Shown here: positions 8,257 through 27,395 of the stretch, one piece after another | Layout: every line of letters begins with the position of its first letter | How positions within the stretch are numbered: the stretch's first letter is position 1 | Assembly: GCA_963682005.1 (NCBI GenBank) | Contig: OY820914.1 | Span: 4,878,005 to 4,942,004, forward strand | DNA from: Bacteroidales bacterium | GTDB taxonomy: Bacteria; Bacteroidota; Bacteroidia; Bacteroidales; FEN-979 | Reading direction: 5' to 3' | DNA: 64,000 nucleotides | Made by a program: the position numbers and the translations under genes | The notes under the pieces: model-generated | Seen by the model: the letters and a program-made list of their open reading frames with translations, nothing else | What the model was told of the DNA's origin: nothing | Database searches by the model: none

Positions 8257-8312
8257 TAAAGGTCGAAATCATTATTAAAAAAACTGTTACAGAATTTTAG
8301 TTATATGTTACA
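8257..8312 (-). promoter_or_regulatory. TGTAAC-pair promoter module P1 (drives the giant surface protein gene)
   Basis: Read toward the gene: TGTAAC-atataactaaaattc-TGTAAC-agtttttttaataatgatttc-GACCTTTA. Confidence 0.6.
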
Positions 8313-8644
8313 TAAAACACACATTATCAATTGGAAAAATAAAGCATTTCAAAGATGACATTTATCATTTTTTTATGTAAGATGGTTTTATTGTCATCTG
8401 CCATCCCGGTAAATTTCAATTGTTGCAGGAATTTCTGCAGACCTACTTAATCAATGTAAATCAGGAAAAAAATAATGCTTTGGAACAAAAGGAAAAGAAC
8501 TTAAAAAACCTGAGAAAATAAAAATTGTGCTGTAAATCAGGTTTGAAATTTTTAACAAATGGCATTTGAGATTTGGATATGAGATGAATTACTTTTTCAT
8601 ATGCGTGAATCATGGAATTTGTTGTAAGCATCTAAACAGGAAGC

Positions 8645-8673
8645 AAAAAAAAACCGGGAAGTTAATTCCCGGT
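8645..8673 (-). terminator. rho-independent terminator of the 962-aa surface protein gene
   Basis: 8-bp stem accgggaa / ttcccggt. A 9-nt A-run on the + strand gives the U-tract on the - strand. Confidence 0.75.
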
Positions 8674-8693
8674 CTTTCATGAAACAGAGGTAT

Positions 8694-11582
8694 TTATTGT
8701 TGTCCAACTATGATCTTTCTGACAACCTGTTTATTCCCATTAATAAATACAACTGTATAAAGTCCGGTCGGAGCAGGCCTGATATCGAGCTTCTGTACTG
8801 TTTGGTCATTCACAAGTATATTATTCTTTTCCAACATTTTAATACCGATGTAGTTGTACACCATTATTGTATATGTCTCCTGGATAGGTGAAGTAATGGC
8901 TACCGTGAACTGTCCGTTATTTGGAACAGGATAAACCTCAAACTTCAGATCAGCTATCGGTTGTTCAGTAACGTCGCTTTCAGTTACAGCGCCTGATTTC
9001 ACCGGAAGCACATTGATATTTTTGATCATTGGTGTTGCAGCGGTGCATCCAAAACTGTTTGTATAATCCAGGCTGACCATTTGGAGACCTGGCGTATCCC
9101 AGGTAACATGAATAATGTTGGTTCCCTGTCCGCTGGTGATCAAACCACCCGATGAAACCTCCCAGGTGTAGTTGAATTGGCCTGAAAGTGTGCTGTACGT
9201 TGTACTGCCCACATAGGTAACTGCATTTCCGGTTATGTAAATGGCGGGCAATTGTATAACCCTGATGATCTTTACGGTCGGGATAACAGGTCCGCAACCG
9301 ATCGGGGCCGTGTAGGTTACTTTAATTGATCTCAGGCTTACACCCGAATTATTCCATACCACATTGATCGAGTTTGTGCTTTGCCCGCTTATAATGCTAC
9401 CCCCTGACCCTGTCACTGTCCAGACATAGTTTAACATGTTCGCATCCGTAGTATATGTGTTCTCTGAGTTAAGACACACCGAGGAAGGGCCATTCAATAA
9501 TGGCATTGGCAATGGATTTACGGTAACCACATAGACGGTCGTTGTTGCATTGGCATAGGTAATTCCTACCCACCGGGCACCCGCGGCATTCCAGGTAACC
9601 AGAATGCTGTTTGTAGCAGCTCCTGAAGTGATTGTACCACCTGGAGATATGGTCCAGATATAACCGGTCATACCTGCCTCGGTGGTGTAACCAACACCTG
9701 TTGCCCCCTGGCAAATTGAATTGAGTCCGGTAATGGTTGGCACCAATGGCGGTGCGACTGTAACATTGTAAACAGCAGGTGTAACTGCCGTACAGTTGTT
9801 TAAGTTGAAATAATTGACGGTAACTGTTTCAACTCCGGCTATGGTCCAGCTTACGGTAATGGCATTTGTTAAATCACCGGCCGTAATGGTACCGCCGGCC
9901 GATACAGTCCAGGTATAGCCTGTCATACCGGGTTCCGTGGTATATATATTTCCGACAGAATTCACACCTACGGTTGCCGGACCCATAATTGTTGGCACTG
10001 GCAATGAATTAACGGTAACAGGATATACAACAGGGGCTGCATTGTCATATGTAACTCCAACGGACTGAATACCCGGGACGCTCCAGGTAACCAGAATTGT
10101 GTTTGTGCCGGTACCTGAAGTGATGGTCCCTCCTGAAGAAATGCTCCAGATATAACCAGTCATTTCAGCCTCGGTGGTGTAAACGATACCTGTTGAACCC
10201 TGGCATACTGAGTTAAGCCCGGTAATGGTCGGTACCAGTGAAGGAGTGTTGCACCCGGGAGGCATAGTTGCGGTTATTGCAGTGGTTCCTAATGCACCTG
10301 TCGTTGAAAACGCCCTGCCATTAAGTGTAACTCCTGTAGCCAAAAGGACCGCTCCATTATTGCAAACAATTGTTCCGTTGAAAATTGAATAGTCATTAAT
10401 GCTTACTGCACCATCAATCTTCCAGTACACATTTTTTGCCTGCGTTCCGTTAATTAAAACAACTTTTGCATAGGTGCTTGTTGTGAGAGCACCGTTTATC
10501 TGTATGACAAATACTGCATCCGGATAACCTCCTGCATTGAGGTAAAGCGTATCGGTGAGTGATGTAGCCGCGTTCAGTAGGTATGTGTGTGGAGTAAGTA
10601 CAAGGCTGTTCCCAAACTGTGCAGGATATAGCAGTTCTATATCAAAAGGCAGTGTGTTCAGATATGTATAAACAATACCCAGATCAGCTGCACACTGTGC
10701 GGTAGACACATCCGGAATGGGATGAATCATACCTGTAACAAACAACGGATTGAAACCGGTAGTTAAACCAACATTTGTTCCGACATCACCCGTGACGTAT
10801 GTAATACCAGCGTTTGAGACTGGCCCGTCAGAAGAAAAGATCGCGTAACATTCAGTGGTTCCAAGTGCCGGAGCCGCCGGACCTGTAAGAACGGGGCTTC
10901 CGCAACCGATGGGTGTGTAGGCCAGTACGCCCTGAACATTAACAGCCCCGGTTGTTGACAGAGCCCTTCCTTCAAGTGTATCACCTGTGTTCAAGTTAAT
11001 TGCCGCATTGTTAGCAATTACAGTGCCCCTCATTGTTGTTCCCGCAGCCATATCTACAAGGCCTTCCACTTTCCAGAAAACATTACATGCCAAAGCTCCA
11101 TTCAGCAGATGAACTTTTGACGAAGCGTTTGTTGAAAATGGTCCTTGAATCTGAAAAATAAATACCGCATTGGCATCTCCCTGTGCATTTAATGATAGAT
11201 CCAGGTTCAATGTTGCTGCACCGGATATGGAATATACGCCTGCATTCAGGATCTGTCCGTTTCCAAGCAACGGGGCCGGAAAGAAGGTTGGAACAGTACT
11301 GTTCAGCTGATTGTACGCTATCAGCAAATCTGCTGCGCATTGAGCACTTGCACCATCACTCGTATGCATAACACCGTTCACATTTCCGAAGCCGGTGATG
11401 GCACCGCTGTTCGTGCCTACATTTCCTGTAATTTGCGAAATACCCGTATTCCCCACAGCCCCGATGGAAGAAAAAAGTACAAAATCAGAGGCAGTTCCCA
11501 AAGGAGGTGCCTGTGCAAAATTCAGAATTGGAATTGAGAGCAGGATACCAACCCTTAATGCATTGAGTAGTTTTGTTTTCAT
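8694..11582 (-). CDS. T9SS-secreted surface protein with two tandem DUF3494 (ice-binding-like) domains, about five PKD/Ig-like modules and a T9SS C-terminal sorting domain
   Basis: 962-aa ORF with a signal peptide. It carries APPLGTASDFVLFSSIGAVGNTGISQITGNVGT and a second copy APALGTTECYAIFSSDGPVSNAGITYVTGDVGT. It has repeated ...YTTE.GMTGY.W.(I/V)S.GGTIT.G... modules. The C-terminus is VYPVPNNGQFTV...GLYTVVFINGNKQVVRKIIV. Confidence 0.88.
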   Translation of the reverse strand: MKTKLLNALRVGILLSIPILNFAQAPPLGTASDFVLFSSIGAVGNTGISQITGNVGTNSGAITGFGNVNGVMHTSDGASAQCAADLLIAYNQLNSTVPTFFPAPLLGNGQILNAGVYSISGAATLNLDLSLNAQGDANAVFIFQIQGPFSTNASSKVHLLNGALACNVFWKVEGLVDMAAGTTMRGTVIANNAAINLNTGDTLEGRALSTTGAVNVQGVLAYTPIGCGSPVLTGPAAPALGTTECYAIFSSDGPVSNAGITYVTGDVGTNVGLTTGFNPLFVTGMIHPIPDVSTAQCAADLGIVYTYLNTLPFDIELLYPAQFGNSLVLTPHTYLLNAATSLTDTLYLNAGGYPDAVFVIQINGALTTSTYAKVVLINGTQAKNVYWKIDGAVSINDYSIFNGTIVCNNGAVLLATGVTLNGRAFSTTGALGTTAITATMPPGCNTPSLVPTITGLNSVCQGSTGIVYTTEAEMTGYIWSISSGGTITSGTGTNTILVTWSVPGIQSVGVTYDNAAPVVYPVTVNSLPVPTIMGPATVGVNSVGNIYTTEPGMTGYTWTVSAGGTITAGDLTNAITVSWTIAGVETVTVNYFNLNNCTAVTPAVYNVTVAPPLVPTITGLNSICQGATGVGYTTEAGMTGYIWTISPGGTITSGAATNSILVTWNAAGARWVGITYANATTTVYVVTVNPLPMPLLNGPSSVCLNSENTYTTDANMLNYVWTVTGSGGSIISGQSTNSINVVWNNSGVSLRSIKVTYTAPIGCGPVIPTVKIIRVIQLPAIYITGNAVTYVGSTTYSTLSGQFNYTWEVSSGGLITSGQGTNIIHVTWDTPGLQMVSLDYTNSFGCTAATPMIKNINVLPVKSGAVTESDVTEQPIADLKFEVYPVPNNGQFTVAITSPIQETYTIMVYNYIGIKMLEKNNILVNDQTVQKLDIRPAPTGLYTVVFINGNKQVVRKIIVGQQ

Positions 11583-11620
11583 TTTTGTTTGATTTACTTT
11601 GTGAATGATTTTTCACAGTA

Positions 11621-11676
11621 CAAAGGTGATGTCAATAATTCCGAAAAGTGTTATACAACTATAGGATTATGTTATA
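11621..11676 (-). promoter_or_regulatory. TGTAAC-pair promoter module P2 (drives the 962-aa surface protein gene)
   Basis: TATAAC-ataatcctatagttg-TATAAC-acttttcggaattattgacat-CACCTTTG. Confidence 0.6.
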
Positions 11677-11730
11677 TCTTTCACAGATCAACTTTATGCA
11701 ACGAATATTCAGGCAGGAATGTTAGAATGA

Positions 11731-11786
11731 TGTAACATAATCCTATAGTTGTGTAATCATTTCATTTCGTGAGAGACTTACCTTTG
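11731..11786 (+). promoter_or_regulatory. TGTAAC-pair promoter module P3 (drives the FISUMP gene)
   Basis: TGTAAC-ataatcctatagttg-TGTAAT-catttcatttcgtgagagact-TACCTTTG. Confidence 0.65.
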
Positions 11787-11887
11787 TTGGCAAGGAAGAA
11801 TGATTGCTGATTCCCCTTAAAACAGTAAATAAAACCTTTAGAAATCCAGATTCCCTGGTTTTCCTCTCAATTTTTAACATCCCGATT

Positions 11888-13360
11888 ATGAAAAACCTGA
11901 TTACTTTAATTTTCCTTTTGGGACTATTTATCCCGGCCCTTTGGTCACAATCCCCAAATGGTATTAACTACCAGGCAATTGTCAGGAATACCAATGGAAA
12001 AGCAATCGTGAACAGATCAGTATCGTTGCGATTCTCGATCCTGCAGGATGCAGCGGCCGGCACCGTAGTTTACAAAGAAACGCATATTGCTGCGACCAAC
12101 CAGTTTGGACTGGTCAACCTGGCGATAGGAAGGGGAACAGTAGTAACCGGGATTTTTTCATCAATAGACTGGGGCGACCATCCCTATTTTCTTAAAACTG
12201 AACTGGACAGTACAGGTGGGAATAACTATATGTTTATGGGTACCAGCCAACTCCTGAGTGTGCCTTATTGCCTGTACTCAAATAATGGTGTTCCGACCGG
12301 TCAGGACCAGGGAGACATGCTTTACTGGACGGGGACAAAGTGGACGAAGGTTCCCGCAGGTGAGAACGGGCAGATCCTCACATTTGCCGATGGTATTCCC
12401 ACATGGGGACAATTGCCGGATCAGCTTCCTGAAGTCAGCACAACCCCGGTAACAAATATCACAGTCACCACGGCCACAAGCGGAGGTACCATTGCTGATG
12501 ATGGTGGGGCAGATGTAACTTCAAGAGGTGTCTGCTGGAATACATCACCCAACCCGACGACGACCAACAATAAAAGCGCCAATGGCGGTGGTTTAGGAGG
12601 GTTTACAAGCAATCTGACCGGATTGACGTCAAACACCTCCTATTATGTAAGGGCCTATGCAACCAGTGCAGCGGGAACGGGTTACGGAAATGAAGTCAAT
12701 TTTCTCACCCTGACGGCATTTGTTTGCGGACAGACTCTGATTTACGACGGGAAAGGCTATCCTACTGTTCAGATCGGTACACAGTGCTGGTTTAAGGAGA
12801 ATCTGAATATCGGAACCAGGATAAACGCTGTCCTGGCCCAGACAAATAATACCGTAATTGAAAAGTACTGTTACAACGACCTGGTGTCAAACTGTGACGT
12901 TTACGGAGGGTTGTATCAATGGGATGAAATGATGGATTATACATTATCAAGCAATGCAAACCCGAGCGGACGTCAGGGCATTTGTCCGGTTGGCTGGCAC
13001 CTGCCCTCTGATGCGGAGTGGTGTGTAGTGACAACGTTTCTCGATCCTACGGTGAATTGTTCGATAACGACATGGAGTGGCACCGATGCCGGAGGAAAAC
13101 TCAAAGAAACGGGAATCTCACATTGGGCCACCCCCAATTCCGGGGCGACAAATGCAAGCAGCTTTACTGCGGTTCCCGCCGGTTATCGAACCGGTAACGG
13201 GACATTTACCGCCATAAACAACAATAACTACATGTCATCTTCTACCGAGGTGGCCGCTACAACAGCCTATTACAGGAATTTATATTATAATTATGCGTCC
13301 GTGTCGAGAGGAAGCAATGCAAAAACCAGTGGTTATACCGTCAGGTGTCTGAAAGATTAG
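11888..13360 (+). CDS. FISUMP-domain protein (Fibrobacter succinogenes major paralogous domain), secreted
   Basis: The ATG at 11888 gives the signal peptide MKNLITLIFLLGLFIPALWSQ; the ORF track's TTG at 11804 adds a non-signal-like extension. The C-terminal half has CGQTLIYDGKGYPTVQIGTQCWFKENLN...YGGLYQW...CPVGWHLPSDAEW...GYTVRCLKD, the FISUMP signature. Confidence 0.8.
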   Translation: MKNLITLIFLLGLFIPALWSQSPNGINYQAIVRNTNGKAIVNRSVSLRFSILQDAAAGTVVYKETHIAATNQFGLVNLAIGRGTVVTGIFSSIDWGDHPYFLKTELDSTGGNNYMFMGTSQLLSVPYCLYSNNGVPTGQDQGDMLYWTGTKWTKVPAGENGQILTFADGIPTWGQLPDQLPEVSTTPVTNITVTTATSGGTIADDGGADVTSRGVCWNTSPNPTTTNNKSANGGGLGGFTSNLTGLTSNTSYYVRAYATSAAGTGYGNEVNFLTLTAFVCGQTLIYDGKGYPTVQIGTQCWFKENLNIGTRINAVLAQTNNTVIEKYCYNDLVSNCDVYGGLYQWDEMMDYTLSSNANPSGRQGICPVGWHLPSDAEWCVVTTFLDPTVNCSITTWSGTDAGGKLKETGISHWATPNSGATNASSFTAVPAGYRTGNGTFTAINNNNYMSSSTEVAATTAYYRNLYYNYASVSRGSNAKTSGYTVRCLKD

Positions 13361-13563: not shown

Positions 13564-13749
13564 ATGAGCCCATTGGAGATTAACGGAAACAGTGACATTA
13601 ATGAAAGCCGCCGTGAACAAAAATTATTGGTTCACCACGAGGATGATTCAGCAAATATCCAGGACTTTACAGAAGAAGATCCTGAAGGATTTCAAAACAG
13701 GCTGGATGTAACCAAAGAAACTAAGCATGCGATCAATCTGGCGATTTAG
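13564..13749 (+). CDS. small acidic hypothetical protein (61 aa)
   Basis: First ATG downstream of promoter module P4. The ORF-track TTG start at 13525 lies inside the -7 box. No family recognised. Confidence 0.35.
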   Translation: MSPLEINGNSDINESRREQKLLVHHEDDSANIQDFTEEDPEGFQNRLDVTKETKHAINLAI

Positions 13750-13839: not shown

Positions 13840-14685
13840 ATGAAAAAAGGAATTCCTCTCATAAAAGCGATCCCGTACATCCGGGATGCATCGAAGCATG
13901 CCATCAGGCTCACTGAGAAAACGGTTGAAAAAAAGGAAATCGCAGCCGGTTTTTTTGTTGAGGTAGCAAGCATTTTCCTGTTTATATCGTGCACCATCCG
14001 GGAGACTTTTTCACGGGAATTCGAATTCCGTGAATTTATGCGGCAGTGTTTTCAGATCGGCTATAAATCATTGCCGCTGATTTCAGTCACCGGCATTATA
14101 ATGGGGCTCGTGCTCACAATCCAGTCACGGCCGGCGCTCGTGAATTTCGGTGCGGTTTCATTGCTCCCCGGAATGGTGGCCATCTCACTTATCCGGGAAA
14201 TGGGGCCTGTAATAACTGCATTGATCTGCGCAGGGAAGATCGGCTCAGGCATGGGTGCAGAACTGGGCTCAATGAAAGTGTCGGAGCAGATTGATTCCAT
14301 GGAGGTATCTTCTACCAATCCGATCAGGTACCTGGTTGTGACAAGAGTACTCGGCGCCACCCTGATGATCCCGTTGCTGGTAATTTATGCCGATGCACTT
14401 GGCATATTGGGAAGTTGGGTGGGTGCCAACATCAAAGGAGATGTATCATTTGTCTTGTTTTTCGCGCAGGCCTTCAGTCACGTCCACTTCATGGATTTTT
14501 TCCCCGCAGTCGTGAAAACATTCTTTTTCGGCGCTGTGATCGGTTTTGTGGGATGTTATAAAGGATATACAGCCGGACGCGGTACCGAGAGTGTGGGTAT
14601 TGCAGCAAATTCAGCTGTGGTGCTCTCTTCCCTGCTTGTTATCATTGTGGACCTGATCGCCGTGCAGATAACGGATATGCTATAA
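13840..14685 (+). CDS. mlaE: MlaE-family ABC transporter permease
   Basis: Polytopic membrane protein (IGYKSLPLISVTGIIMGLVLTIQS...ALICAGKIGSGMGAELGSMKVSEQIDSME) directly upstream of an ABC ATPase and an MCE protein. Confidence 0.8.
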   Translation: MKKGIPLIKAIPYIRDASKHAIRLTEKTVEKKEIAAGFFVEVASIFLFISCTIRETFSREFEFREFMRQCFQIGYKSLPLISVTGIIMGLVLTIQSRPALVNFGAVSLLPGMVAISLIREMGPVITALICAGKIGSGMGAELGSMKVSEQIDSMEVSSTNPIRYLVVTRVLGATLMIPLLVIYADALGILGSWVGANIKGDVSFVLFFAQAFSHVHFMDFFPAVVKTFFFGAVIGFVGCYKGYTAGRGTESVGIAANSAVVLSSLLVIIVDLIAVQITDML

Positions 14686-14689
14686 ACGA

Positions 14690-14724
14690 ATTATTAATTA
14701 TGAATTATGAATTATAAATTATGA
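14690..14724. repeat. heptamer array (attatga x5, two degenerate) between the mlaE stop and mlaF start
   Basis: attatta attatga attatga attataa attatga. The mlaF ATG (14721) lies inside the last unit. Confidence 0.8.
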
Positions 14725-15497
14725 ATGACCGTCAGCAATCACCGGCAATATTGTCAGAATCGGATAAGTCCGGGGAGATCATTGACATTGTTAACCTCAG
14801 GAAAGGATTCGTGAACCAGGAAGTATTGAAAAATGTTTCGTTGAAACTCTTCACCGGGGAAAACCTGGTGGTATTGGGGAAATCCGGATCGGGAAAGTCA
14901 GTTCTGATAAAATGCATTGTCCGGCTTCTGGATCCTGAAGATGGATCCATTACTGTGCTTGGTGAAGATGTAAATTCACTAAACACCACTGCATTGGGAG
15001 AATTGAGAAAAAAGGTCGGATTCCTGTTCCAGAGTGGAGCCCTCTATGATTCCATGACAGTCAGGCAGAACCTGGAATTCCCCCTGAAGAGAATAAAAAA
15101 GGATCTGTCACTAAAAGAAATGGATGAAAAAATTCTTGAAGTCCTCGAAAATGTGGGGTTACCGGATACCCTCGACAAAATGCCATCGCAGCTTTCAGGA
15201 GGAATGCGCAAACGGATCAGCCTGGCGCGGACCATTGTGGTGGACCCCAGAATCATGCTGTACGACGAGCCCACAACCGGGCTGGACCCTGTAACCTCAG
15301 ACGAAATAAGCTCACTTATCAATGATGTCAGGAAAAAGTACAAAACATCCTCCATCATCATCACCCATGATATTGAATGTGCCAGGGCTACGGCAAACAG
15401 GGTTATTATGCTGCATGAAGGGGAAGTTTACAAGGAAGGGGACCTGGATGAATTTGAAAAATCAACCGACCCGTTGATCAAATCATTCTTCAAATAA
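14721..15497 (+). CDS. mlaF: ABC transporter ATP-binding protein, MlaF-like
   Basis: Walker A GKSGSGKS, ABC signature LSGGMRKR, Walker B IMLYDEP. Confidence 0.9.
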   Translation: MNDRQQSPAILSESDKSGEIIDIVNLRKGFVNQEVLKNVSLKLFTGENLVVLGKSGSGKSVLIKCIVRLLDPEDGSITVLGEDVNSLNTTALGELRKKVGFLFQSGALYDSMTVRQNLEFPLKRIKKDLSLKEMDEKILEVLENVGLPDTLDKMPSQLSGGMRKRISLARTIVVDPRIMLYDEPTTGLDPVTSDEISSLINDVRKKYKTSSIIITHDIECARATANRVIMLHEGEVYKEGDLDEFEKSTDPLIKSFFK

Positions 15498-15531
15498 CCA
15501 TTATGAAGGGCCGGAATTAATTCAACATCAA

Positions 15532-16278
15532 ATGGAAACGCACACACAAAAATTCAAAATACGCCTGGGGCTTTTTATTGCAGGGGGAATGGCACTTTTT
15601 ATTATCGGCATTTTCATCATCGGCAAGCAGAAAAATCTTTTTAATCCTGTTTTCAAGCTAACCACCACCTTTTATAATGTCAGTGGACTGCAGGTCGGCA
15701 ATAATGTCCGGTTCTCCGGGATCAATGTCGGAACGGTTGATAACATTATGATCATCAATGATTCCACCGTACGCGTTGATATGCTTGTCAGGAAAAGTGT
15801 TCAGCAATTTATCAAAACGGATTGTGAAGCCGGCATCGGTTCCGCCGGGATCATCGGCGACCGGTTATTGGTCATCACCCAGGGTAGTAATGATGCTCCT
15901 CTGGCAAAAGACGGGCAGCATATCCCGTCGAAGGAACCGGTTGAAACGGATGCCATCATGGCCAGCCTTTATGGAACAGCATATAATGCAGAGATCATTA
16001 CCGATCAGCTTGCCGAGATCATGATCAGTGTAAACGGTGGAAAAGGTACGATCGGCCGGCTGATAAAGGATACCAGCATTGCTGAAAACTTCAGCCAGAC
16101 GATGGTGAATATTAAAAAAAGCAGCAAAGGGCTGGATGAAAACATGAAAGCTGCCAGTCACAATTTCCTGCTAAAAGGATATTTCAACAAAAAAGCAAAG
16201 GCAGCTCAAAAAACGAAGGATAGCATTGAAAAAATCAAGGTAAAAGAACAAAAAGCAATTGACAAAAAGAAAAAGTAA
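15532..16278 (+). CDS. mlaD: MlaD/MCE-domain protein
   Basis: N-terminal TM helix followed by an MCE-like segment (FNPVFKLTTTFYNVSGLQVGNNVRFSGINVGTV). It is third in the mlaE-mlaF-mlaD order. Confidence 0.75.
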   Translation: METHTQKFKIRLGLFIAGGMALFIIGIFIIGKQKNLFNPVFKLTTTFYNVSGLQVGNNVRFSGINVGTVDNIMIINDSTVRVDMLVRKSVQQFIKTDCEAGIGSAGIIGDRLLVITQGSNDAPLAKDGQHIPSKEPVETDAIMASLYGTAYNAEIITDQLAEIMISVNGGKGTIGRLIKDTSIAENFSQTMVNIKKSSKGLDENMKAASHNFLLKGYFNKKAKAAQKTKDSIEKIKVKEQKAIDKKKK

Positions 16279-18807: not shown

Positions 18808-18924
18808 GATCCTGATTATAATATGTTGATTCAAAAGTAAGAAATGATGGTTAGAAAGCCATACATAATTCTTGTCGTTGAGTGAATGTTGAATCTTAGA
18901 TTTCATTTCGGCCCATACTTCCCC

Positions 18925-19974
18925 TTAATTGGCAGCCCTGGCTTTTTTCTTTTTAAAGATATCGAACCGGGTTCCTCCCCAGATGCGAAATTGCGCCACA
19001 TCATAATAGAACCTCGCATTGCTGAGTTGGCTTGGAACCTCGTTGAATCCTGTTTGAACGGATCCACCGAGAAACCATTTGCTTGAATTATACCCCAGGG
19101 CGAAACGGCCGCTGAGCTGGAAAACAAATTCAGATTCAGATGTTCCTGTCATGTCATTCCCAAACGATGAAAACTGGGCGGCAACGCCCGGAAAAACAAC
19201 TGCCGTAAGATAAAAATTCTTTAGGAATACCAAGGTATAAGCATACCCCGGTGACAATCCGACCGAATATATTTCCCCTCTTTTGATCGAATTGGAAACG
19301 GGGATATGATAATCATAAGCCATTTCAGCCGGAATAAGCCCATTACTTGAAGAAATCTGGTAATACAAAAATGAAGGTCTGATCATGAAACTGCCGGCAC
19401 TCTTTTTCTGGCGTTCATTCTGGATGAAAGCAGCACGGATTGAGAACCGCTTTGAATTGTATACCCAATAACCGGAAATACCAAACGAGAATGTTTGCAT
19501 GTCAGGGATTATATAATGTGTTCCTTCCGGCTTTTCCGGAAAACTCAGGTAGTACCCTTTGTACCGTTGCAGGAATATTTCACCTGCAAGGGCCCGTCCA
19601 TATGCATTGATCCGGAAATCCAGCGTCGAGGTTTTTCCATATGCTGTCCGGTCAGTTTTATAGAATGGATTATCTATTGACAATCCAAGGCCAAACCACT
19701 TCCAGAAACCGGCAATCCCGATTCTGACATTGACATTTGGCCGGTAAACGATCTTTGAAACTTCATAATCAGAGGCCCTGATGAGCAGGGAAGCATTCTC
19801 AAAGAGAAGAAATATCCGGGCCGTAAACAAACCGGTGTAATCCTCCACATGCGTACTGTCAACATTCTGCGGTTGCATTAAACCAGTGTCAGGATTTGTC
19901 TGGGTTATTGCCACAGGACCTGCAAATAGCAAGAGAATTAAGAAAACTCCGGTGGCCTTTGTTCGGATTGACAA
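18925..19974 (-). CDS. predicted outer-membrane beta-barrel protein (DUF4421-like)
   Basis: Signal peptide, alternating beta-strand-like pattern and an aromatic-rich C-terminal region. The family name is tentative. Confidence 0.55.
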   Translation of the reverse strand: MSIRTKATGVFLILLLFAGPVAITQTNPDTGLMQPQNVDSTHVEDYTGLFTARIFLLFENASLLIRASDYEVSKIVYRPNVNVRIGIAGFWKWFGLGLSIDNPFYKTDRTAYGKTSTLDFRINAYGRALAGEIFLQRYKGYYLSFPEKPEGTHYIIPDMQTFSFGISGYWVYNSKRFSIRAAFIQNERQKKSAGSFMIRPSFLYYQISSSNGLIPAEMAYDYHIPVSNSIKRGEIYSVGLSPGYAYTLVFLKNFYLTAVVFPGVAAQFSSFGNDMTGTSESEFVFQLSGRFALGYNSSKWFLGGSVQTGFNEVPSQLSNARFYYDVAQFRIWGGTRFDIFKKKKARAAN

Positions 19975-19999: not shown

Positions 20000-20185
20000 T
20001 TATACATGGATGTTCATCATGTAGCTGAAAAGACCAAATACCTTGAGAAGCCAGACACAGACAATGATCACGACCACAACGTTCAGAATGGTTTTGATCT
20101 TGTGGTCCATAGGAATGTATGTATTGACCAGCCATAGAACAACACCGGCAATGATCAGGACTATTAAAATGGTGAATAGTGGCAT
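20000..20185 (-). CDS. small two-TM membrane protein (61 aa)
   Basis: MPLFTILIVLIIAGVVLWLVNTYIPMD...ILNVVVVIIVCVWLLKVFGLF. It is the first gene behind promoter module P5. Confidence 0.6.
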   Translation of the reverse strand: MPLFTILIVLIIAGVVLWLVNTYIPMDHKIKTILNVVVVIIVCVWLLKVFGLFSYMMNIHV

Positions 20186-20356: not shown

Positions 20357-20593
20357 TTATGATTCATCCTTCGTCGTGCGGATAAGGCCAATACCTGCAA
20401 TGAAGAAAATCAACCCCAGAATGCTGTAAATTAAGATCGCTTTAATATTGCGGTCACCGCCTGATGCGGCGACAAATGCGATTGCAGCATAAATCAGGCC
20501 TCCTATTCCAAGAATTGTGAGTATTGCGCCAAAAATTCTTTTTACGTTCATTATTTCATTTTTTACGATTGATATAGAATTACCTGTTATCAA
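20357..20593 (-). CDS. small two-TM membrane protein (78 aa)
   Basis: Two hydrophobic helices (IFGAILTILGIGGLIYAAIAFVA, ILIYSILGLIFFIAGIGLI). It lies 26 nt downstream of the preceding gene. Confidence 0.55.
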   Translation of the reverse strand: MITGNSISIVKNEIMNVKRIFGAILTILGIGGLIYAAIAFVAASGGDRNIKAILIYSILGLIFFIAGIGLIRTTKDES

Positions 20594-20619: not shown

Positions 20620-22080
20620 TCATTGCCCCATATTCTTAGGGGGTTCACCCTGTTGAGATTCCTTATCCTTGCCGGTGCTTTTAGGCGGATTATTTTGCTG
20701 AGGCTGCTTATCCGGTTTGGCATCGTGTTGCGGCTGCGCTGGCTGCTTTGAAGGCGGGTTATTGTGCTGTTTCGGCGACTGCTGCTTTGGCGGCTGGGAC
20801 GGGGGCTGCTGCTTTTCCGACGGACTGTTGTGTTGTTGCGGGGCTGGCTGCTGCTTTGGCGGCTGTTGCTTTGAGGGCTGATCTTTCCCCTGCTGCGGTG
20901 ACGGTTGTTGCTTCGAAGGAGGATTATTGTGCTGTGACGGTGCTGGTTGCTGCCTTGGCGGCTGCTGCTTTGAAGGCTGATCTTTTCCCTGTTGCGGTGA
21001 CGGTTGTTGCTTTGGCGGCTGCTGCTTTGAAGGCTGATCTTTTCCCTGTTGCGGTGACGGTTGTTGCTTTGGCGGCTGCTGCCTTGAAGGCTGATCTTTT
21101 CCCTGCTGCGGTGATGGTTGTTGCTTCGCCGGTTGCTGCCTTGAAGGCTGATCTTTTCCCTGCTGCTGTGATGGTTGTTGCTTCGCCGGCTGACCTTTTT
21201 GTTCTGGTTGATTTGGCTGCTGCCTGCTGGGCTGGGCCGGTCTCTGAGACGGGGTTTCTACCTTCCTTTGTTGGGCCGGCTTCACATTATTCATATTTTC
21301 AACCCTTGACGGAGCAGGTTTTGGGCCTGATGAAACTACCCTCTGTACCTGAGGCCGGTATAACTGAACCTGGTCCTTGGTGACTTTCTGACCCGGTTGG
21401 CTTGATTCTCTTATTGTAACCGGGGTAATCGTCCGGCCTGCACGTTTTTCCACTTCATTCCTGGCAGGTCCTGCATTGTATGTCACATTCCTTGACCTGT
21501 CAACATGCGTATTATTAATAACTGTGGAATTATTGATGATCGTTACATTTGTTGATCTGTCAACATAATAGTTATTGATGTTCGTCCGGCCCAGGTACCC
21601 GCTTCTTACAAAGGTGTAACTATTGTGGGATTCATTGTAGCCAGATCCATATGCGACACTGACATTCACCCCTGGTCCGATCGGCGCCCAGCCATAATAT
21701 CCTTCTGACCGCCTCCAGGTAACCCATCCTGGACCCCATTCATTATCAGGAACCCAGATCGGTCCGTAAACGGGATCGGTATACCACCGCCCATAATGAA
21801 AAGGCGCCCATCCCCATGAATAATTGGAAACCCATGTCCAGCCCTGATCAGTCAATATCCAATAACCATTCGTGGCATAGGGAGTAAAGCCGGGGGAGAC
21901 ATCCGGTATCCAGACATATCCATATTCAGGATTGTCAACCCAGGTCCCGTATGGGCTTAAATCATCATAAAAAACCTGAAAACTTACAGATGCCCCCTGC
22001 GCAGGGGCATGTTGCGGCGTTATCCACCCGCCGACAGAAATGAGAAAAAGAAGTGCGACAAATTTGATCCTGGTTTTCAT
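20620..22080 (-). CDS. secreted protein with a W/Y/G-rich N-terminal domain and a P/Q-rich repetitive C-terminal tail
   Basis: Signal peptide, then GYVWIPDVSPGF...WGWAPFHYGRWY...WGPGWVTWRR, and a C-terminal tail of (QPSPQQGKDQPSKQQPPKQ)n repeats. Confidence 0.7.
   Translation of the reverse strand: MKTRIKFVALLFLISVGGWITPQHAPAQGASVSFQVFYDDLSPYGTWVDNPEYGYVWIPDVSPGFTPYATNGYWILTDQGWTWVSNYSWGWAPFHYGRWYTDPVYGPIWVPDNEWGPGWVTWRRSEGYYGWAPIGPGVNVSVAYGSGYNESHNSYTFVRSGYLGRTNINNYYVDRSTNVTIINNSTVINNTHVDRSRNVTYNAGPARNEVEKRAGRTITPVTIRESSQPGQKVTKDQVQLYRPQVQRVVSSGPKPAPSRVENMNNVKPAQQRKVETPSQRPAQPSRQQPNQPEQKGQPAKQQPSQQQGKDQPSRQQPAKQQPSPQQGKDQPSRQQPPKQQPSPQQGKDQPSKQQPPKQQPSPQQGKDQPSKQQPPRQQPAPSQHNNPPSKQQPSPQQGKDQPSKQQPPKQQPAPQQHNSPSEKQQPPSQPPKQQSPKQHNNPPSKQPAQPQHDAKPDKQPQQNNPPKSTGKDKESQQGEPPKNMGQ
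20860..21200 (-). repeat. 57-bp (19-aa) P/Q-rich coding tandem repeat
   Basis: gaaggctga recurs at 20972, 21029, 21086 and 21143 (period 57). The protein repeat is QPSPQQGKDQPSKQQPPKQ. Confidence 0.85.
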
Positions 22081-22204: not shown

Positions 22205-24574
22205 CTATTTGGAAATGCTTATGCTTTCCTTCCGTTCCTTCCTGAATTTTTTTCTCGGTTTTTCATTATTCAATTCATTCATCTTCCGGTAGGCTTTCAG
22301 CAAGGATTTAGGAAAATCACCCTTGTAGACTATTTTATAAAAGGAAAAACCGTTATAGGGGATGGTGTTTTCCGGGGAATGAAATTTTACCCGGTTTTCA
22401 ACACCTTTCTGTGTGAACGAGTGCAAAAAAGCAGTTTCCCTTTCCTTATTTAACAATCTGAATGTATTGCTAATAGTAATGATTCCAATATACCGGTTGC
22501 ATTTCTCCTGGATGGTAAACAACAAACTATCATCAAGATACTTGTTCAGATAACGGACAAACAACGAATCTTTCACTGACTTGTTATCAACATCAATGGA
22601 ATCTGCTTCACTGAATTGCAATGATTTCTTCTCCCGGTTCCGTAAAAAATATTTCTTCTTGGCTTCAAAAAAACCGATATATTCTTTTTCCTTTTCTGCA
22701 TAAACCATCGGATATACGGAAATTGAGGCATCCGGATTATCTTTCAGGAAATCAACCATTTCATCTATAAACTTTTCCTGCTGGGGCAACAGGGAATTCT
22801 GACGCATGTTCCACTTCAGCGTAAGGGATTGCTCAATTTCAGCTTCGAGATCCTTTACCTCCATTCTGTAAGGCCCCGTCGCGGGTTTTACAAAAATATT
22901 CTCAACAATATCGACTAAGACATCATGCAAATGAAATTTTGGATCCTTCAGGTTTCCGGTTATCGGTATCTCGTAGTCAATCACATTCCCCCGTTCCCGG
23001 ACAAGTGACATCATCAACCGCATGGGTAGCCATTTTGTATTTTTATTTGCTGAACGAATGCCGATCCGCGGGTCAATTACCACAAGGTGGTTTTTGCTTT
23101 GTATTATTCCATTCCTTACGTTCCATGAACCTTTGATCTCTATTGTTCCCCTGTCCAGCGGAAAAGAGGTGTAAGTTATCAGGTAGGGATTGAAAACGGA
23201 AGCGGGCACTCTTTTAAGGTCATATTGCAGATCAAAATCCGTACTGTCCGTTGGGTTAATGCGTAAAGTCACATTCAGATCACCATATGGTTTGATACCG
23301 GATTTAAATGCCACATTGACCCATTTGTGATTCTTGTCCACAGAATCTGCGACAATATACAACGGATATGCACTGGCAGAAAACTTCTCTTTAACGGAAT
23401 AGTCGTTGAATTGGAGATTACCATCGTAGATTGCAAGCCGGTCTATTTTGTATTCGCTCTGGAAAAAATTCCTTGCGAGCACTTTAACGTAACGTGCAAT
23501 TTCAATCACCAGGTTAAATTTGGCAGGATCTGCAGCCGCCGATGAAATGTTCGCACCATTTTTTCCGAACATCCTTTGCAGGTTATCCAGATAGTCATAA
23601 ATCTCATATATAAAATAAGGCTTAACGAGCGAAACAGAATCGAACAGGTATTGATGATTTTTCGGGCTGATTTCAATGATTGCCAGTGACAATTTTTTAA
23701 ATGAGGAGAGATCCTCTTTCGGATTCTTTCCAAAATGAAAATCATTGACTGCCAGTTGTCCTGACATCGTTATATTTTCCTCATCCTTAAAGTTGCCCTT
23801 TGCTTTCATGTCAGCGTCAATGTTGGCGGAAAAACTTCCATGGTTTGTGATTTCGCGCAGGTATTGTTCAATAATCGACAGATCGAATTTTTGAACGACT
23901 ACTGAATAGTGATAATCCAGGGTTTCATAATTGATGGTAAAGTTGCCTTTTGCCCTACCGGTTCCTGTTCCGGATGTGAATGAAAAATGCACACCCATGG
24001 TGTCGGCATTCCAACGTTTGCCGGCACTTTCAATATTTACCTCTTTGATGAAATAGTCTATGGGAGTAACATCTTCGCGGTACCGGAACACTCCGTTTTT
24101 CAGGCTGATCTTCAGGATTGAGAAATGCACGGATGATGGGGTCGTACTTGGTTTTTTGGGTGTAAATAGCTTTATCAGATCCGTAAAGTTCAGTACTTTT
24201 TTATTTTGAATTATTATTCCGTGTGGCTGATCCAATGTGGCTTCTGTGATCTCAACCGTTTTCGACAGGAGTTTGAGCAGTGCAAAGTTTACGCTGACTC
24301 CCCTGGCTGTAAAGAAAATACTGTCACCAGTCCGGTATCCGGGAAGGCTTTTGGATTCATAAATTTTGAGATTGCTTATGTGCACATATCCCGTGAAAGG
24401 GTTGATATAAATCCAACTCATTTTGACCTGCCTCCCGGTGTACTTCTCCGCATACTTCTCCAAAAGGTACTTTGCAATGGGTGAGATCAATAAAATGATC
24501 ACCACAGCTGCACTGAGGATTGCTCCAAAAACAATCAGGATTGTTTTTTTTAACGGGGTGTTTGCAATTTTCAT
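22205..24574 (-). CDS. large N-terminally anchored envelope protein, DUF748-like
   Basis: 789-aa ORF. The N-terminal TM and ISPIAKYLLEKYAEKYTGRQVKMSWIYINPFTGYVHISNLKIYE are recalled from DUF748 proteins; the family name is tentative. Confidence 0.6.
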   Translation of the reverse strand: MKIANTPLKKTILIVFGAILSAAVVIILLISPIAKYLLEKYAEKYTGRQVKMSWIYINPFTGYVHISNLKIYESKSLPGYRTGDSIFFTARGVSVNFALLKLLSKTVEITEATLDQPHGIIIQNKKVLNFTDLIKLFTPKKPSTTPSSVHFSILKISLKNGVFRYREDVTPIDYFIKEVNIESAGKRWNADTMGVHFSFTSGTGTGRAKGNFTINYETLDYHYSVVVQKFDLSIIEQYLREITNHGSFSANIDADMKAKGNFKDEENITMSGQLAVNDFHFGKNPKEDLSSFKKLSLAIIEISPKNHQYLFDSVSLVKPYFIYEIYDYLDNLQRMFGKNGANISSAAADPAKFNLVIEIARYVKVLARNFFQSEYKIDRLAIYDGNLQFNDYSVKEKFSASAYPLYIVADSVDKNHKWVNVAFKSGIKPYGDLNVTLRINPTDSTDFDLQYDLKRVPASVFNPYLITYTSFPLDRGTIEIKGSWNVRNGIIQSKNHLVVIDPRIGIRSANKNTKWLPMRLMMSLVRERGNVIDYEIPITGNLKDPKFHLHDVLVDIVENIFVKPATGPYRMEVKDLEAEIEQSLTLKWNMRQNSLLPQQEKFIDEMVDFLKDNPDASISVYPMVYAEKEKEYIGFFEAKKKYFLRNREKKSLQFSEADSIDVDNKSVKDSLFVRYLNKYLDDSLLFTIQEKCNRYIGIITISNTFRLLNKERETAFLHSFTQKGVENRVKFHSPENTIPYNGFSFYKIVYKGDFPKSLLKAYRKMNELNNEKPRKKFRKERKESISISK

Positions 24575-24703
24575 AATTCAATTTATCGGAAACTCTCCCT
24601 GCCAGGCAGAAAGAACAAGTGAAATTTGGCAGGAAAATGCCTCAGGCAATGTTGAGAACTATAAAATGGATCGCCACTCAACCTCATAACCAGGAATGGC
24701 TCG

Positions 24704-25699
24704 TCAATTGTTTACTATTTGCGGAATGAACTGATGCTTGTTCGATAATTTCCATGTAACACTCACCCCTACAGCATCCGGAGTTGTCGACAGGCCAAGT
24801 GCAAGATGCTTGCTGCAAGGAATCTTATGTAATGCAGGGACCACGATGCCGATAACAGCGCCAAGCCCGAACCCTACGGCGATGTCGGATGGAAAATGAT
24901 CCAATGAACGTATTCGGGCATATCCTATCACCAAAGGGGGAACCGACGCTGCAAGGTATAAAAGGTATTTCGCCGCCCCGATATTCGGATGATAGTCACA
25001 AAATACCTTGACCATGAAAAACGTACTGTAGGCGCAGGATGCCACATGCCCGCTGTAAAAAGAGTTACGGTTGTTGCTATTTTTTTGGGCATCGGCCCCG
25101 AGGGCCGGATAATAAACAGCTGGCCTGTAACGGTTCTGAAAGTACGGTCCAAGAGGACTGTAATTGTAGAATGTGAATGTCACCGTATGTCCTTCAACAT
25201 ACATAAACAAAAGGTGAAGCCAGTCCTTCCTTATATTTTTATCAATCATCAGTAAACTGGGCAGAAGGAATATGCCAATCTCCCCGTAATCGGAAACCTT
25301 CTTCCACATGGCCCGATCAGATGTTGGCTGGTGCAAAGACCACCGGTCTAATGTGTTATACAGATTTTTTTGCTGATCCGTATTCGCAAAAATAAGTTCC
25401 TCATCAGACAGGGATGCCTTGCTCTTTAAACGTGGAATCGCAAACAAGTCACCAACCATGCCAACCAATATGATCGACCCTTCAACAAAATAATTGATAT
25501 TGTAAACTTTCATTTTCACGGGTTTCAATGGCTTTGCCCCTGTGTCACTTATTTTTGCAATTGTGTCTGCAGACCCACATAATGCACTGACACTTATCAT
25601 CAGGCTTGCCATTAAACACGCCAAGGTTCTCATTCGGAACCATTTGCTTTTAAATTTGCCCAGGTAACTCCCTGCAAACCAATTTTTCATTCGTATCAT
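24704..25699 (-). CDS. PAP2-family phosphatase (membrane)
   Basis: Motifs YSGHVAS and RIRSLDHFPSD in a polytopic membrane protein. Confidence 0.75.
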   Translation of the reverse strand: MIRMKNWFAGSYLGKFKSKWFRMRTLACLMASLMISVSALCGSADTIAKISDTGAKPLKPVKMKVYNINYFVEGSIILVGMVGDLFAIPRLKSKASLSDEELIFANTDQQKNLYNTLDRWSLHQPTSDRAMWKKVSDYGEIGIFLLPSLLMIDKNIRKDWLHLLFMYVEGHTVTFTFYNYSPLGPYFQNRYRPAVYYPALGADAQKNSNNRNSFYSGHVASCAYSTFFMVKVFCDYHPNIGAAKYLLYLAASVPPLVIGYARIRSLDHFPSDIAVGFGLGAVIGIVVPALHKIPCSKHLALGLSTTPDAVGVSVTWKLSNKHQFIPQIVNN

Positions 25700-25702
25700 A
25701 AT

Positions 25703-26260
25703 TTATTTCTTCTTCCCTTTTCCACCGTCGTGACCCTGGTCTGACTTTGTGCCTTTTTCGTTCCCATGATAATTGCCCTTATCGTTGCTGTGTCCTGATT
25801 TATAGTCATTGCCATGTCCTTTATCTTTATTTTCGTGATTACCATCGTGTGTATTCTTTACGCCGTTGCCTTTGCCCGGTCTTTCCCCGATCGTTTTCTG
25901 GGCTCCGCCATGATAACCTTTCGCATATTTCTTTTTATACTCCTTAAAATTTTTATACGGAGTGGTACCGTGATAATCCCTCATCACAACTTTATACCCG
26001 CCATACAGATCGTAATTCCTGTACATCCCCGGCAGATATGCCCGGTGTACCCAGACGCCACCTGTGTAATAAATGAATACGGATGAGTGGACATCATAAT
26101 AGGCTTCAACATCGGGCAGGTAATAGTAACGGACATCCGTAAACCCTACCGGTCCCCACGGTGGAGGAACGCCGATATTTACGTTCACAGAAACCTGAGC
26201 TTGCATTGCACCTCCTGCTAACAACATCATTCCGGCCAGGATCAATCGAATTGTTTTCAT
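25703..26260 (-). CDS. secreted hypothetical protein with a Y-rich core and an H/G/K-rich tail
   Basis: Signal peptide MKTIRLILAGMMLLAGGAMQAQ, YYYLPDVEAYYDVHSSVFIYYTGGVWVHRAY, and the tail GHGNDYKSGHSNDKGNYHGNEKG. It is the first gene behind module P7. Confidence 0.6.
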   Translation of the reverse strand: MKTIRLILAGMMLLAGGAMQAQVSVNVNIGVPPPWGPVGFTDVRYYYLPDVEAYYDVHSSVFIYYTGGVWVHRAYLPGMYRNYDLYGGYKVVMRDYHGTTPYKNFKEYKKKYAKGYHGGAQKTIGERPGKGNGVKNTHDGNHENKDKGHGNDYKSGHSNDKGNYHGNEKGTKSDQGHDGGKGKKK

Positions 26261-26291
26261 CGCATCATTCTTTAGATCATTTTACAGACTG

Positions 26292-26347
26292 CAAAGTTGA
26301 GCCCTTTCCTGTCAGTAACTGTTACACAAATAGATAAAAGAGTTACA
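26292..26347 (-). promoter_or_regulatory. TGTAAC-pair promoter module P7 (drives the Y-rich protein + PAP2 + DUF748-like genes)
   Basis: TGTAAC-tcttttatctatttg-TGTAAC-agttactgacaggaaagggct-CAACTTTG. Confidence 0.65.
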
Positions 26348-26376
26348 ACATTAACACATGCGGAATATGTGAATGA

Positions 26377-26432
26377 TGTAAGATTATTCAAGTTTTATGT
26401 AACACGGATATTGGCAATGAACCTCAACTTTG
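26377..26432 (+). promoter_or_regulatory. TGTAAC-pair promoter module P8 (drives the OmpA-family gene)
   Basis: TGTAAG-attattcaagtttta-TGTAAC-acggatattggcaatgaacct-CAACTTTG. Confidence 0.65.
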
Positions 26433-26462
26433 TATTATAAATATTTACTTTAAAAACAAAAG

Positions 26463-27260
26463 ATGAAAACAGCATTCCGGCTCATTGCATGCTTGTTCCT
26501 TATGGTCAGCATGCTTTTTACGTCTTGCGTATCAAGCAAGAAATTTGCAGCTTCCGAAGCCCGGGTTGACCAGCTTCAGAAAGACAATGCCAGTTCACTT
26601 CGCCAGTTGAATGATTGTAACCTTCAGGTCAAAAATCTGAAGGATGAAAAATCAGCCCTGCAAAATGACAATGCATCGGTTCAAAATGATCTGAAAGTCC
26701 TGACAACCGAGTCAAAGATGACGATTGCCGACCAGGCAAAACGTTTAAAGAACCTTCAGGATATGATCCAGGCACAGAGAAACGTAATGACAAATCTCCA
26801 GAATTCAATTGCCAAGGCCTTAATGAATTATAAAACGGACGAATTAACCGTTTACATCAAAGACGGAAATGTTTATGTATCCCTTGAAGAAAAGCTATTG
26901 TTCAAATCAGGCAGTGATGTGGTCGATCCCAAGGGAAAGGAAGCGCTGAAAACGCTGGCCAATGTCCTGAATGGAACAAAAGACATCACGGTGATGATAG
27001 AAGGCCATACGGACAACGTGCCCATCAAGACCAGGCAATTTAAAGACAATTGGGATCTGAGCACATCAAGAGCAACTTCAATTGTGCGGATCTTATCTGA
27101 TGAGTATGCTTTTGATCCTACACGGATCACAGCATGCGGCCGGGGTCAATTTCACCCTGTTAAGCCAAATGATACGGATGCAGGACGCGCTGCCAATCGC
27201 AGAACAGAGATCATTCTATCACCGGATCTGAAGGAACTATACAAGCTGCTGTATCAGTAG
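26463..27260 (+). CDS. OmpA-family protein (coiled-coil N-terminus, OmpA_C-like peptidoglycan-binding domain)
   Basis: Lipoprotein-like signal (LFTSC). OmpA_C motifs GHTDNVPI, NWDLSTSRATSIVRIL and NRRTEIIL. Confidence 0.85.
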   Translation: MKTAFRLIACLFLMVSMLFTSCVSSKKFAASEARVDQLQKDNASSLRQLNDCNLQVKNLKDEKSALQNDNASVQNDLKVLTTESKMTIADQAKRLKNLQDMIQAQRNVMTNLQNSIAKALMNYKTDELTVYIKDGNVYVSLEEKLLFKSGSDVVDPKGKEALKTLANVLNGTKDITVMIEGHTDNVPIKTRQFKDNWDLSTSRATSIVRILSDEYAFDPTRITACGRGQFHPVKPNDTDAGRAANRRTEIILSPDLKELYKLLYQ

Positions 27261-27339
27261 AATTCGGGCTGAAGGGCAGGTGGGGAACATGTGCCTGATC
27301 CCCGGTTTTGGCCGACAAATGGCAGTAAAATGAAAATCA

Positions 27340-27395
27340 TGTAATAATTATGAACAATTGTGTAACAGTCAAAATCTCAATCGGGCGTAAATTTT
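27340..27395 (+). promoter_or_regulatory. TGTAAC-pair promoter module P9 (drives the small TM gene, possibly also radical SAM)
   Basis: TGTAAT-aattatgaacaattg-TGTAAC-agtcaaaatctcaatcgggcg-TAAATTTT(G). This is the weakest -7 box of the nine. Confidence 0.5.

Follow-up and report, generated by a model that had tools for sequence, protein, structure and literature searches.

The window analysed here, a 64-kb stretch (64,000 nucleotides) of contig OY820914.1 from a Bacteroidales bacterium, contains nine promoter-like modules, designated P1 to P9, each of which consists of two TGTAAC-type hexamers followed by an 8-bp -7 box in the arrangement box1(6)-N15-box2(6)-N21-(-7 box). A first-pass annotation of the same DNA had proposed these sites as a candidate envelope regulon, and all nine were recovered at the coordinates and on the strands that it gave; exactly nine sites of this geometry are present in the window. 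Each of them is intergenic and oriented toward an open reading frame (ORF), with the start codon typically 30-40 nt past the -7 box. Beyond the window, stress and cell-envelope genes across Bacteroidota are preceded by the same module. No regulator gene was found in the annotation of the window, as had been noted, and zero RNA families were matched there by Rfam.

The positions of the modules are given here as 70 bp, a 14-bp upstream extension included, and their scores are those of a 70-bp position weight matrix (PWM) trained on 30 sites, all from other genomes. P1 (8257-8326, minus strand, 43.7 bits) drives the gene of a 2588-aa adhesin with Pfam Ice_binding domain (452-8218), the ATG of which lies 38 nt past the -7 box. 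P2 (11621-11690, minus, 50.1 bits) drives 8694-11582, which encodes Ice_binding, PKD and type IX secretion system (T9SS) C-terminal sorting domains, and P3 (11717-11786, plus, 47.7 bits), divergent from P2, drives the gene of a FISUMP protein at approximately 11804-13360. The highest score belongs to P4 (13458-13527, plus, 50.7 bits), which drives a small ORF, read from the ORF list as having its ATG at 13564, and then mlaE-mlaF-mlaD-DUF3943 (13840-17851). P5 (20210-20279, minus, 41.3 bits) drives a unit of three genes encoding a 61-aa THIVI_2564 protein (20000-20185), a DUF4421 protein (18925-19974) and a PAP2 protein (17848-18906). The weakest module, P6 (22117-22186, minus, 24.6 bits), drives a DUF6600 gene (20620-22080) together with the gene of a small membrane protein (20357-20593). 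P7 (26292-26361, minus, 49.7 bits) drives hyp185 (25703-26260), a PAP2 gene (24704-25699) and a DUF748/AsmA-like gene (22205-24574); back-to-back with it, P8 (26363-26432, plus, 46.2 bits) drives the gene of an OmpA-family lipoprotein (26463-27260). Finally, P9 (27326-27395, plus, 34.3 bits) drives the gene of a 70-aa membrane protein (27424-27636). ORF and Pfam annotation of these downstream genes agreed with the earlier description. The C-terminal half of the DUF6600 protein, encoded on the minus strand, is a long Pro/Gln-rich repeat (QQPSPQQGKDQPSKQQPPKQ...). Sixty nucleotides past the small gene driven by P9 starts a B12-binding radical SAM/DUF4070 gene (27697-29181, plus), which may belong to the P9 transcription unit, although this assignment is uncertain.

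Several independent counts set the nine sites apart from the rest of the window. Same-strand TGTAAN pairs occur nine times at a 21-bp period and 0-3 times at any other spacing in the range of 6-79. With a 41-bp PWM, which extends from 14 bp upstream of box1 through box2, leave-one-out scores of the nine sites were 24-45 bits, compared with 6.6 for the next-ranked position in the window and a mean top score of 7.5 in dinucleotide-shuffled controls. The 70-bp PWM, built without any site from the window, picked out exactly the same nine (24.6-50.7 bits), and the next-ranked position scored -8.9. A raw count of TGTAAC-N15-TGTAAC matches (43 versus 3.7 expected) is an inflated figure and the wrong statistic here because of a 210-bp tandem repeat within the gene of the 2588-aa adhesin; this gene (452-8218, minus) contains approximately twelve near-identical 210-bp units (70 aa each) at 4900-7420, and these are the source of most of the spurious matches at two mismatches.

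Could the sites nevertheless be chance similarities, a generic promoter upstream region, or copies of a small promoter-carrying mobile element? The PWM scan detected zero modules in the 35-kb housekeeping or core half of the window, and the four promoters noted there are plain TAnnTTTG boxes without TGTAAC boxes; the expectation that the pair of boxes is not the generic -33 region of this lineage was thus upheld. The spacers, said to be unrelated, are indeed so for most sites, as are the flanks. P2 and P3 depart from this in sharing 20 identical bases across box1, spacer and box2 (AACATAATCCTATAGTTGT; 11650-11676, minus, and 11731-11757, plus), a stretch that marks a local inverted duplication or gene conversion. 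Local duplication therefore happens, and to that extent a mobile or copied element has something in its favor. Against it stand scores far above those of shuffled sequence and of the rest of the window, housekeeping promoters that lack the module, otherwise unrelated spacers and flanks, and the conservation of modules at orthologous positions across orders. We consider explanations of this kind refuted.

Conservation was examined first in seven loci fetched by means of the DUF748 protein of the window (54-66% identity), which come from Bacteroidota metagenome-assembled genomes (MAGs) labelled Bacteroidales, Bacteroidia, Cytophagales and Chitinophaga. Modules of the same geometry, scoring 17-46 bits, precede DUF748, Mla and other genes in these loci. 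Metagenomes were scanned with TGTGAATNATGTAA-N13-TNNTGTAAY, a pattern that does not include the -7 box, and matches were obtained on at least 120 contigs (646 kb, GC 29-49%). Among the 138 exact matches listed, TTT[GA] follows at exactly N21 in 114 and at N20 in 12, the background for TTT[GA] being 1.8% per position. Recovery of the -7 box at these distances, when it was not part of the pattern, indicates that the fixed geometry is a conserved property of the element. On the contigs listed, at least 210 sites score above 20 bits. ORF starts lie 15-60 nt downstream of 57% of the sites and of 17% of random positions, an enrichment by which the element behaves as a promoter. Altogether the module was found in genomes of Bacteroidales, Prolixibacteraceae and Chitinophagaceae and in many metagenomes.

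A profile of 237 sites, taken from all non-window loci, showed that the motif is longer than first noted, namely AATGTGTGAATnATGTAAC-N15-TGTAAC-N21-nAnCTTTG, with a conserved block that reaches 14 bp upstream of box1 (AATrTGTGAATnA). The profile itself reads AATGTGTGAATnATGTAAc-TttTTt..a.AaTT.-TGTAAca.tT-(N)-nAnCTTTG, and an initial consensus of 32 sites from the window and the DUF748-fetched loci was already close to it. Two asymmetric blocks in direct repeat can be distinguished: (i) a strongly conserved distal block of 19 bp, AATGTGTGAATnATGTAAC, and (ii) a weaker proximal block of 17 bp, a.AaTT.TGTAACa.tT. The distance from box to box is fixed at 21 bp in the 237 sites, a period of two helical turns. 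With the final G of the -7 box assigned to about -7, which sets a putative transcription start, box2 would occupy -41 to -36 and box1 -62 to -57; the distal block would then extend from -75 to -57 and the proximal block from -48 to -32, abutting the -33 position. Sub-elements of the ATGT type are located at -12, -1 and +20 relative to box1. A TTG had been described ahead of box2; the two T residues hold, but the G is not fixed and the third base varies. Divergent module pairs show no single preferred distance, with separations scattered over 30-32, 53-62, 98-102 bp and others. A CRP/FNR-like palindrome in the distal block (TGTGA-N6-TAACA) was considered and rejected: past TAA its right half shows little conservation, the left half is missing from the proximal site, and a single CRP-family gene occurs across all loci.

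In the same profile, the -7 box has A at position 2 in 215 of the 237 sites, T at each of the three T positions in 199-233, a preference for C at position 4, and a terminal G or A in 209, so that the TTTG core of the housekeeping box is kept. The description as a Bacteroidota-type -7 box accordingly applies to this core and not to the first base, which in the relatives is C (96 sites) more often than T (71 sites). At -33, approximately 19 bp upstream of the -7 box, the 237-site profile contains no TTTG or TTG; TT alone remains at about -33/-32, with an adjacent G in 28 of the 237 sites, and a weak A-A is conserved at about -22/-21.

The first-pass annotation had attributed the repeats to a LytTR-domain response regulator, a dimer of which would bind them and activate the promoter. 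Direct repeats of 21-bp period upstream of a promoter do fit the established architecture of AgrA, ComE and PlnC sites, and GTTACA, the reverse complement of the box, holds the GTT core of the LytTR consensus. The assignment had been drawn from the 21-bp direct-repeat geometry only, however, and AraC/XylS sites share that geometry. LytTR sites follow a format of 9-bp repeats with a 12-13-bp gap; here the period is 21 bp and the blocks measure 19 and 17 bp, the distal one being about twice the length of a LytTR half-site. By our own reading of the consensus, [TA][AC][CA]GTTN[AG][TG], only 7 of 9 positions fit. Eight candidates with a REC domain and the size of a response regulator were checked in 934 kb of fetched loci, and Pfam confirmed two as LytTR (in L034 and L003), a lower bound since the local LytTR searches are insensitive. 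Neither of the two is recurrently placed relative to a module or module-driven, and we judged their number to be about background. Binding by a LytTR regulator is, in our estimate, very improbable.

What the module drives was established by clustering and Pfam annotation of the first genes after it in the metagenome loci (at least 120) and the relatives. The most frequent first gene is CsbD (at least 26 sites), followed by Ice_binding adhesins and OmpA-family proteins (at least 15 each), MlaE (at least 10, mlaE being module-driven in at least ten metagenome loci), DUF5670 (lmo0937-like; at least 9), cupin proteins and PAS histidine kinases (at least 8 each), a small AraC protein (at least 7) and DUF6600 (at least 6), the homologues of the last being module-driven in six of six cases among the fetched loci. 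DUF748 and THIVI_2564 were each found at no fewer than four sites, and YtxH, Usp and YceI at no fewer than three. BON, Fe/Mn SOD, HPF, Transgly_assoc (GlsB), SPFH, YkuD, M48 peptidase and sigma-factor genes occurred once or twice. Farther along, at distances of up to 3 kb from a module, genes of P-type ATPases, BrkB and AI-2E transporters recur. Units of the window are also repeated elsewhere under module control: the THIVI_2564-DUF4421-PAP2 operon of P5 in loci L005, L130 and L131, the PAP2-DUF748 operon of P7 in the same three and in L133, and the small-protein family of P9 in L026, L050 and L057. The idea of a coherent regulon was therefore borne out, module-driven genes forming a general-stress and envelope set. 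Its designation as an envelope regulon proved too narrow, since general-stress genes, CsbD, YtxH, Usp, DUF5670, cupin, YceI and BON among them, are the most frequent module targets in the relatives. As judged from these annotations, the regulon comprises general-stress genes together with outer-membrane lipid, envelope and adhesin genes, and the window is one island of it that holds mostly the envelope and adhesin part.

Sigma-factor genes deserve a separate comment. L067 contains a full-length sigma-70 gene of 287 aa (408-1271, minus; regions 1.2-4) with a 34-bit module before it and a 45-bit module after it, and two extracytoplasmic function (ECF) sigma genes are module-driven (L119:4356-4868 and L083:2396-2863). 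An alternative sigma factor could itself read the module, in the manner of RpoS or SigB, with CAnCTTTG as its -7/-10 element and the upstream boxes as an extended -35 or UP-like region. Such a promoter would account for a gene content that resembles sigma-B, sigma-S and EcfG regulons and for the C-biased first base, unlike the housekeeping TAnnTTTG, and the three module-driven sigma genes just mentioned point the same way. Yet sigma factors do not read approximately 40 bp of specific sequence, here from -75 to -36, and the 21 bp between TGTAAC and the -7 box exceed the ECF spacing of 16-17 bp. The 237 sites show no conserved CGT-type element in the spacer and keep the TTTG core of the housekeeping -7 box, and sigma genes are not enriched, with seven hits in 0.8 Mb of loci and none in a fixed arrangement. 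An alternative sigma promoter is in our view improbable.

One regulator family stood out in the fetched loci, made up of proteins of 179-186 aa with an HTH_18/HTH_AraC domain. Loci fetched with the motif or with DUF748 encoded twenty close homologues (E<1e-43), and the total reached 26 in 934 kb when the AraC-anchored loci were included; other AraC-type proteins numbered about four. Two paralogs can be distinguished by their C-termini, A1 ending in ...LENV* and A2 in ...IEDI. At the A1 gene, a module begins 9 bp ahead of the stop codon (AAT GTG TGA AT), an arrangement found in L005 (5466-5475), L030, L104, L111, L117, L124 and L129-L134 (10552-10561 in L129-L133). The last two codons and the stop of A1 (...N V *) thus lie within the distal block, so that coding and regulatory sequence overlap at a conserved position. 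The module at the A1 stop drives PAP2-DUF748, cupin, CsbD or other genes; ahead of A1 itself there is no module, only TAnnTTT[GA] boxes of the ordinary kind. A module stands before A2 in L129, L030 and L002. The genes that come after A2 encode, in L129 and L030, a PAS-HisKA-HATPase-REC hybrid kinase and a receiver of a single domain, and in L002 a kinase; the same A2-kinase-REC operon is present in L133, a locus that ends before the upstream region of the operon.

As an independent test, the AraC protein was used as the sole query for fetching loci, and every distinct locus so obtained has a module at the AraC stop codon. In L129 (cultured Ferruginibacter lapsinanis, Chitinophagaceae), L130 (a Bacteroidetes MAG) and L131 and L133 (ENA assemblies), this module scores 44-50 bits and 1-3 further modules are present; the short L134 (2.9 kb) carries the stop-codon module only. 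On CP086063.1, the record with the A1 and A2 genes of F. lapsinanis, L129 spans 1186518-1207078, and converting its locus coordinates places the three modules at about 1191889-1191958, 1197069-1197138 and 1200690-1200759. The further modules precede genes for Ice_binding, OMP-Mla-DUF748/TamB, BON, old-yellow-enzyme, THIVI_2564-DUF4421, DUF6600 and Usp proteins. Together these loci repeat the gene set of the window, that is PAP2, DUF748, DUF6600, OmpA, THIVI_2564, DUF4421, PAP2 and DUF3943. In L005, L130, L131 and L133, an AraC gene occupies the slot that hyp185 has in the window. A degenerate AraC protein was considered for hyp185 and ruled out; the product of this minus-strand gene, itself driven by P7, is a secreted 185-aa protein rich in Tyr, Gly and Lys that has no Pfam or NCBIfam match.

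Between Bacteroidales MAGs and Chitinophagaceae, sequences of the AraC protein share 77-87% identity; Prolixibacteraceae have a second subfamily. The protein scores below every NCBIfam cut-off, and a search of the PDB returned only generic matches to AraC DNA-binding domains. An AlphaFold model (pLDDT 85) predicts an N-terminal domain of beta-alpha-beta-beta-alpha-beta order, followed by a long helix and then by an AraC DNA-binding domain of seven helices. Foldseek matched the C-terminal half to MarA, SoxS, AdpA, AraC, Rns and ToxT, and the N-terminal half to Atx1/CopZ-type metal chaperones, with weak E-values of 0.08-0.22 and target-normalised TM scores of 0.65-0.74; the CxxC metal site of the latter is not conserved, and the family has only one invariant Cys. 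With its predicted ferredoxin-like N-terminal domain of HMA type and its two-HTH AraC DNA-binding domain, this protein is referred to below as HMA-AraC.

A different transcription factor, of the OmpR type or another and encoded elsewhere, may instead bind the module, with the AraC protein as a member of the regulon or a lower tier of a cascade. The AraC linkage is one of gene neighborhood only; A2, several kinases and sigma factors are module-driven, as members of the regulon would be, and the ATGT-type sub-elements could suit other families. On the other hand, no other family recurs near modules, where we counted two OmpR-type, two LuxR-type and one CRP-type regulator, two LytTR proteins and the seven sigma-factor hits already mentioned, and A1 is not module-driven yet always lies directly upstream of a module. 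We regard a different factor as unlikely, although it retains more weight than the LytTR and sigma readings.

The proposal that we favor, and hold to be probably correct, is that the modules are class II, AraC-type activator-dependent promoters of the housekeeping sigma factor, bound by the small HMA-AraC protein. AraC/XylS activators recognize asymmetric direct-repeat sites of 17-20 bp with a 21-bp period, the proximal site overlapping the -35 region. Two direct-repeat sites two helical turns apart, the weaker of which touches -35, have this geometry, and it is on this ground that we propose head-to-tail binding. Each module would be an activator-dependent promoter of the Bacteroidota housekeeping sigma (sigma-A type), in which the missing TTTG at -33 is replaced by the two asymmetric sites 21 bp apart. 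Two HMA-AraC protomers would bind these head-to-tail, like AraC at araI1-I2 or XylS at Pm, as an A1 homodimer, an A2 homodimer or an A1/A2 heterodimer, and would bring in RNA polymerase by class II activation. A1 would be read from its ordinary promoter, and module-driven A2, co-transcribed with the PAS hybrid histidine kinase and the single-domain receiver, would provide signal input and positive feedback. We infer here that the AraC protein binds the DNA, that binding activates and does not repress, that transcription starts at the positions given above and that the kinase and receiver take part.

Several observations count against this proposal. The AraC gene is absent from the 64-kb window, and its linkage to the module stems largely from a few conserved pairs (AraC-cupin and AraC-PAP2-DUF748), so that the protein may be a member or neighbor of the regulon and not its binder. 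The protein has no receiver domain, which makes its link to the kinase and receiver a conjecture. Within the distal site, the two strongest sub-elements start 9 bp apart, as against the textbook 10-11 bp of MarA-type elements, and a -7 box that often starts with C is compatible with a specialised sigma factor. One step further, the module, the HMA-AraC pair, the PAS hybrid kinase and the receiver might together constitute the master general stress circuit of Bacteroidota, a serious possibility that we stop short of favoring. If it were true, an activator-based stress circuit would stand where other phyla rely on alternative sigma factors (SigB, RpoS, EcfG), and stress proteins would be coupled with outer-membrane lipid remodelling and T9SS adhesins.

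The core half of the window contains two further features of note. A T9SS cluster without modules includes PorV and, after it, three large tandem paralogs (37689-49824, minus). Of these paralogs, the two outer proteins, of 1134 and 1317 aa, were confirmed by Pfam to have Peptidase_C25/PorU-like domains, and the middle one (42412-45813, 1133 aa) was assigned by its size and position only; PorP/SprF and a GldJ-like FGE-sulfatase protein at 50072-52561 continue the cluster. A gene of the 23S rRNA intervening-sequence protein family (36595-37041, minus) lies between ispF (YgbB) and the rpsF operon.

The architecture of the module is of a known kind, that of an AraC-type class II site. What appears to be undescribed is the regulator variant with its separate kinase and receiver partners and, most of all, the regulon. 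Our search of the literature open without subscription found no description of the motif, the AraC family or a general stress regulon of Bacteroidota. We know of no described general stress regulator in this phylum, which, to our knowledge, lacks RpoS, SigB and EcfG. Three handles make the question of stress regulation in Bacteroidota directly testable: (i) a precise cis-element of approximately 70 bp, (ii) a candidate regulator family, 77-87% identical across classes, for which there is no curated family model or close solved structure, and (iii) a cultured organism, F. lapsinanis (CP086063), that carries all parts next to one another. The module also gives a physiological context to DUF748, DUF4421, DUF3943, DUF6600, DUF5670 and THIVI_2564, links the Mla, AsmA-like and PAP2 lipid functions with stress adaptation, and can be used as a regulon marker in metagenomes.

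Among known systems, the closest parallel is that of AraC at araI1-I2, XylS at Pm, RhaS/RhaR and MelR, which likewise use two asymmetric direct-repeat sites of 17-20 bp with a 21-bp period. In class II promoters of this family, too, the weaker proximal site lies at or over the -35 of a promoter with a poor -35, the regulator gene stands beside its target and one paralog is autoregulated. The module differs in that its promoter is of the Bacteroidota -33/-7 type and its regulon is a broad stress and envelope set and not a catabolic operon. Its candidate regulator, for which binding is only predicted, has just 179-186 aa, with an HMA-like N-terminal domain in place of a cupin or sugar-binding domain, and exists as two paralogs, one of which shares an operon with PAS hybrid kinase and receiver genes. 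MarA, SoxS and Rob resemble the candidate in recognizing an asymmetric site (marbox) of about 20 bp with a two-HTH AraC DNA-binding domain and in governing stress and envelope regulons, but they act as monomers at single sites, whereas the module always has two sites at fixed spacing. The LytTR sites of AgrA (P2/P3), ComE and PlnC share imperfect direct repeats of 21-bp period upstream of the core promoter; the module has no linked LytTR gene, a distal block of 19 and not 9 bp, and a poor fit to the consensus. The hybrid two-component systems of Bacteroides are built from the same parts, an AraC-type HTH, a histidine kinase and a receiver, but the module system has each of them as a protein of its own, with no receiver domain in the AraC protein, and its targets are stress and envelope genes instead of polysaccharide utilisation loci. 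In content, the regulon shares CsbD, YtxH, Usp, BON/OsmY-like, HPF, SOD, GlsB/Transgly_assoc and YceI proteins with the general stress responses under SigB in Bacillus, RpoS in enterics and PhyR-NepR-EcfG in Alphaproteobacteria, and there, as here, PAS-type kinases appear to feed the circuit and the regulatory genes are auto-induced. In contrast to those responses, the module has the appearance of a housekeeping-type promoter with an activator site and not of an alternative-sigma promoter, and its regulon adds the Mla, DUF748/AsmA-like and PAP2 lipid block and the T9SS adhesins.

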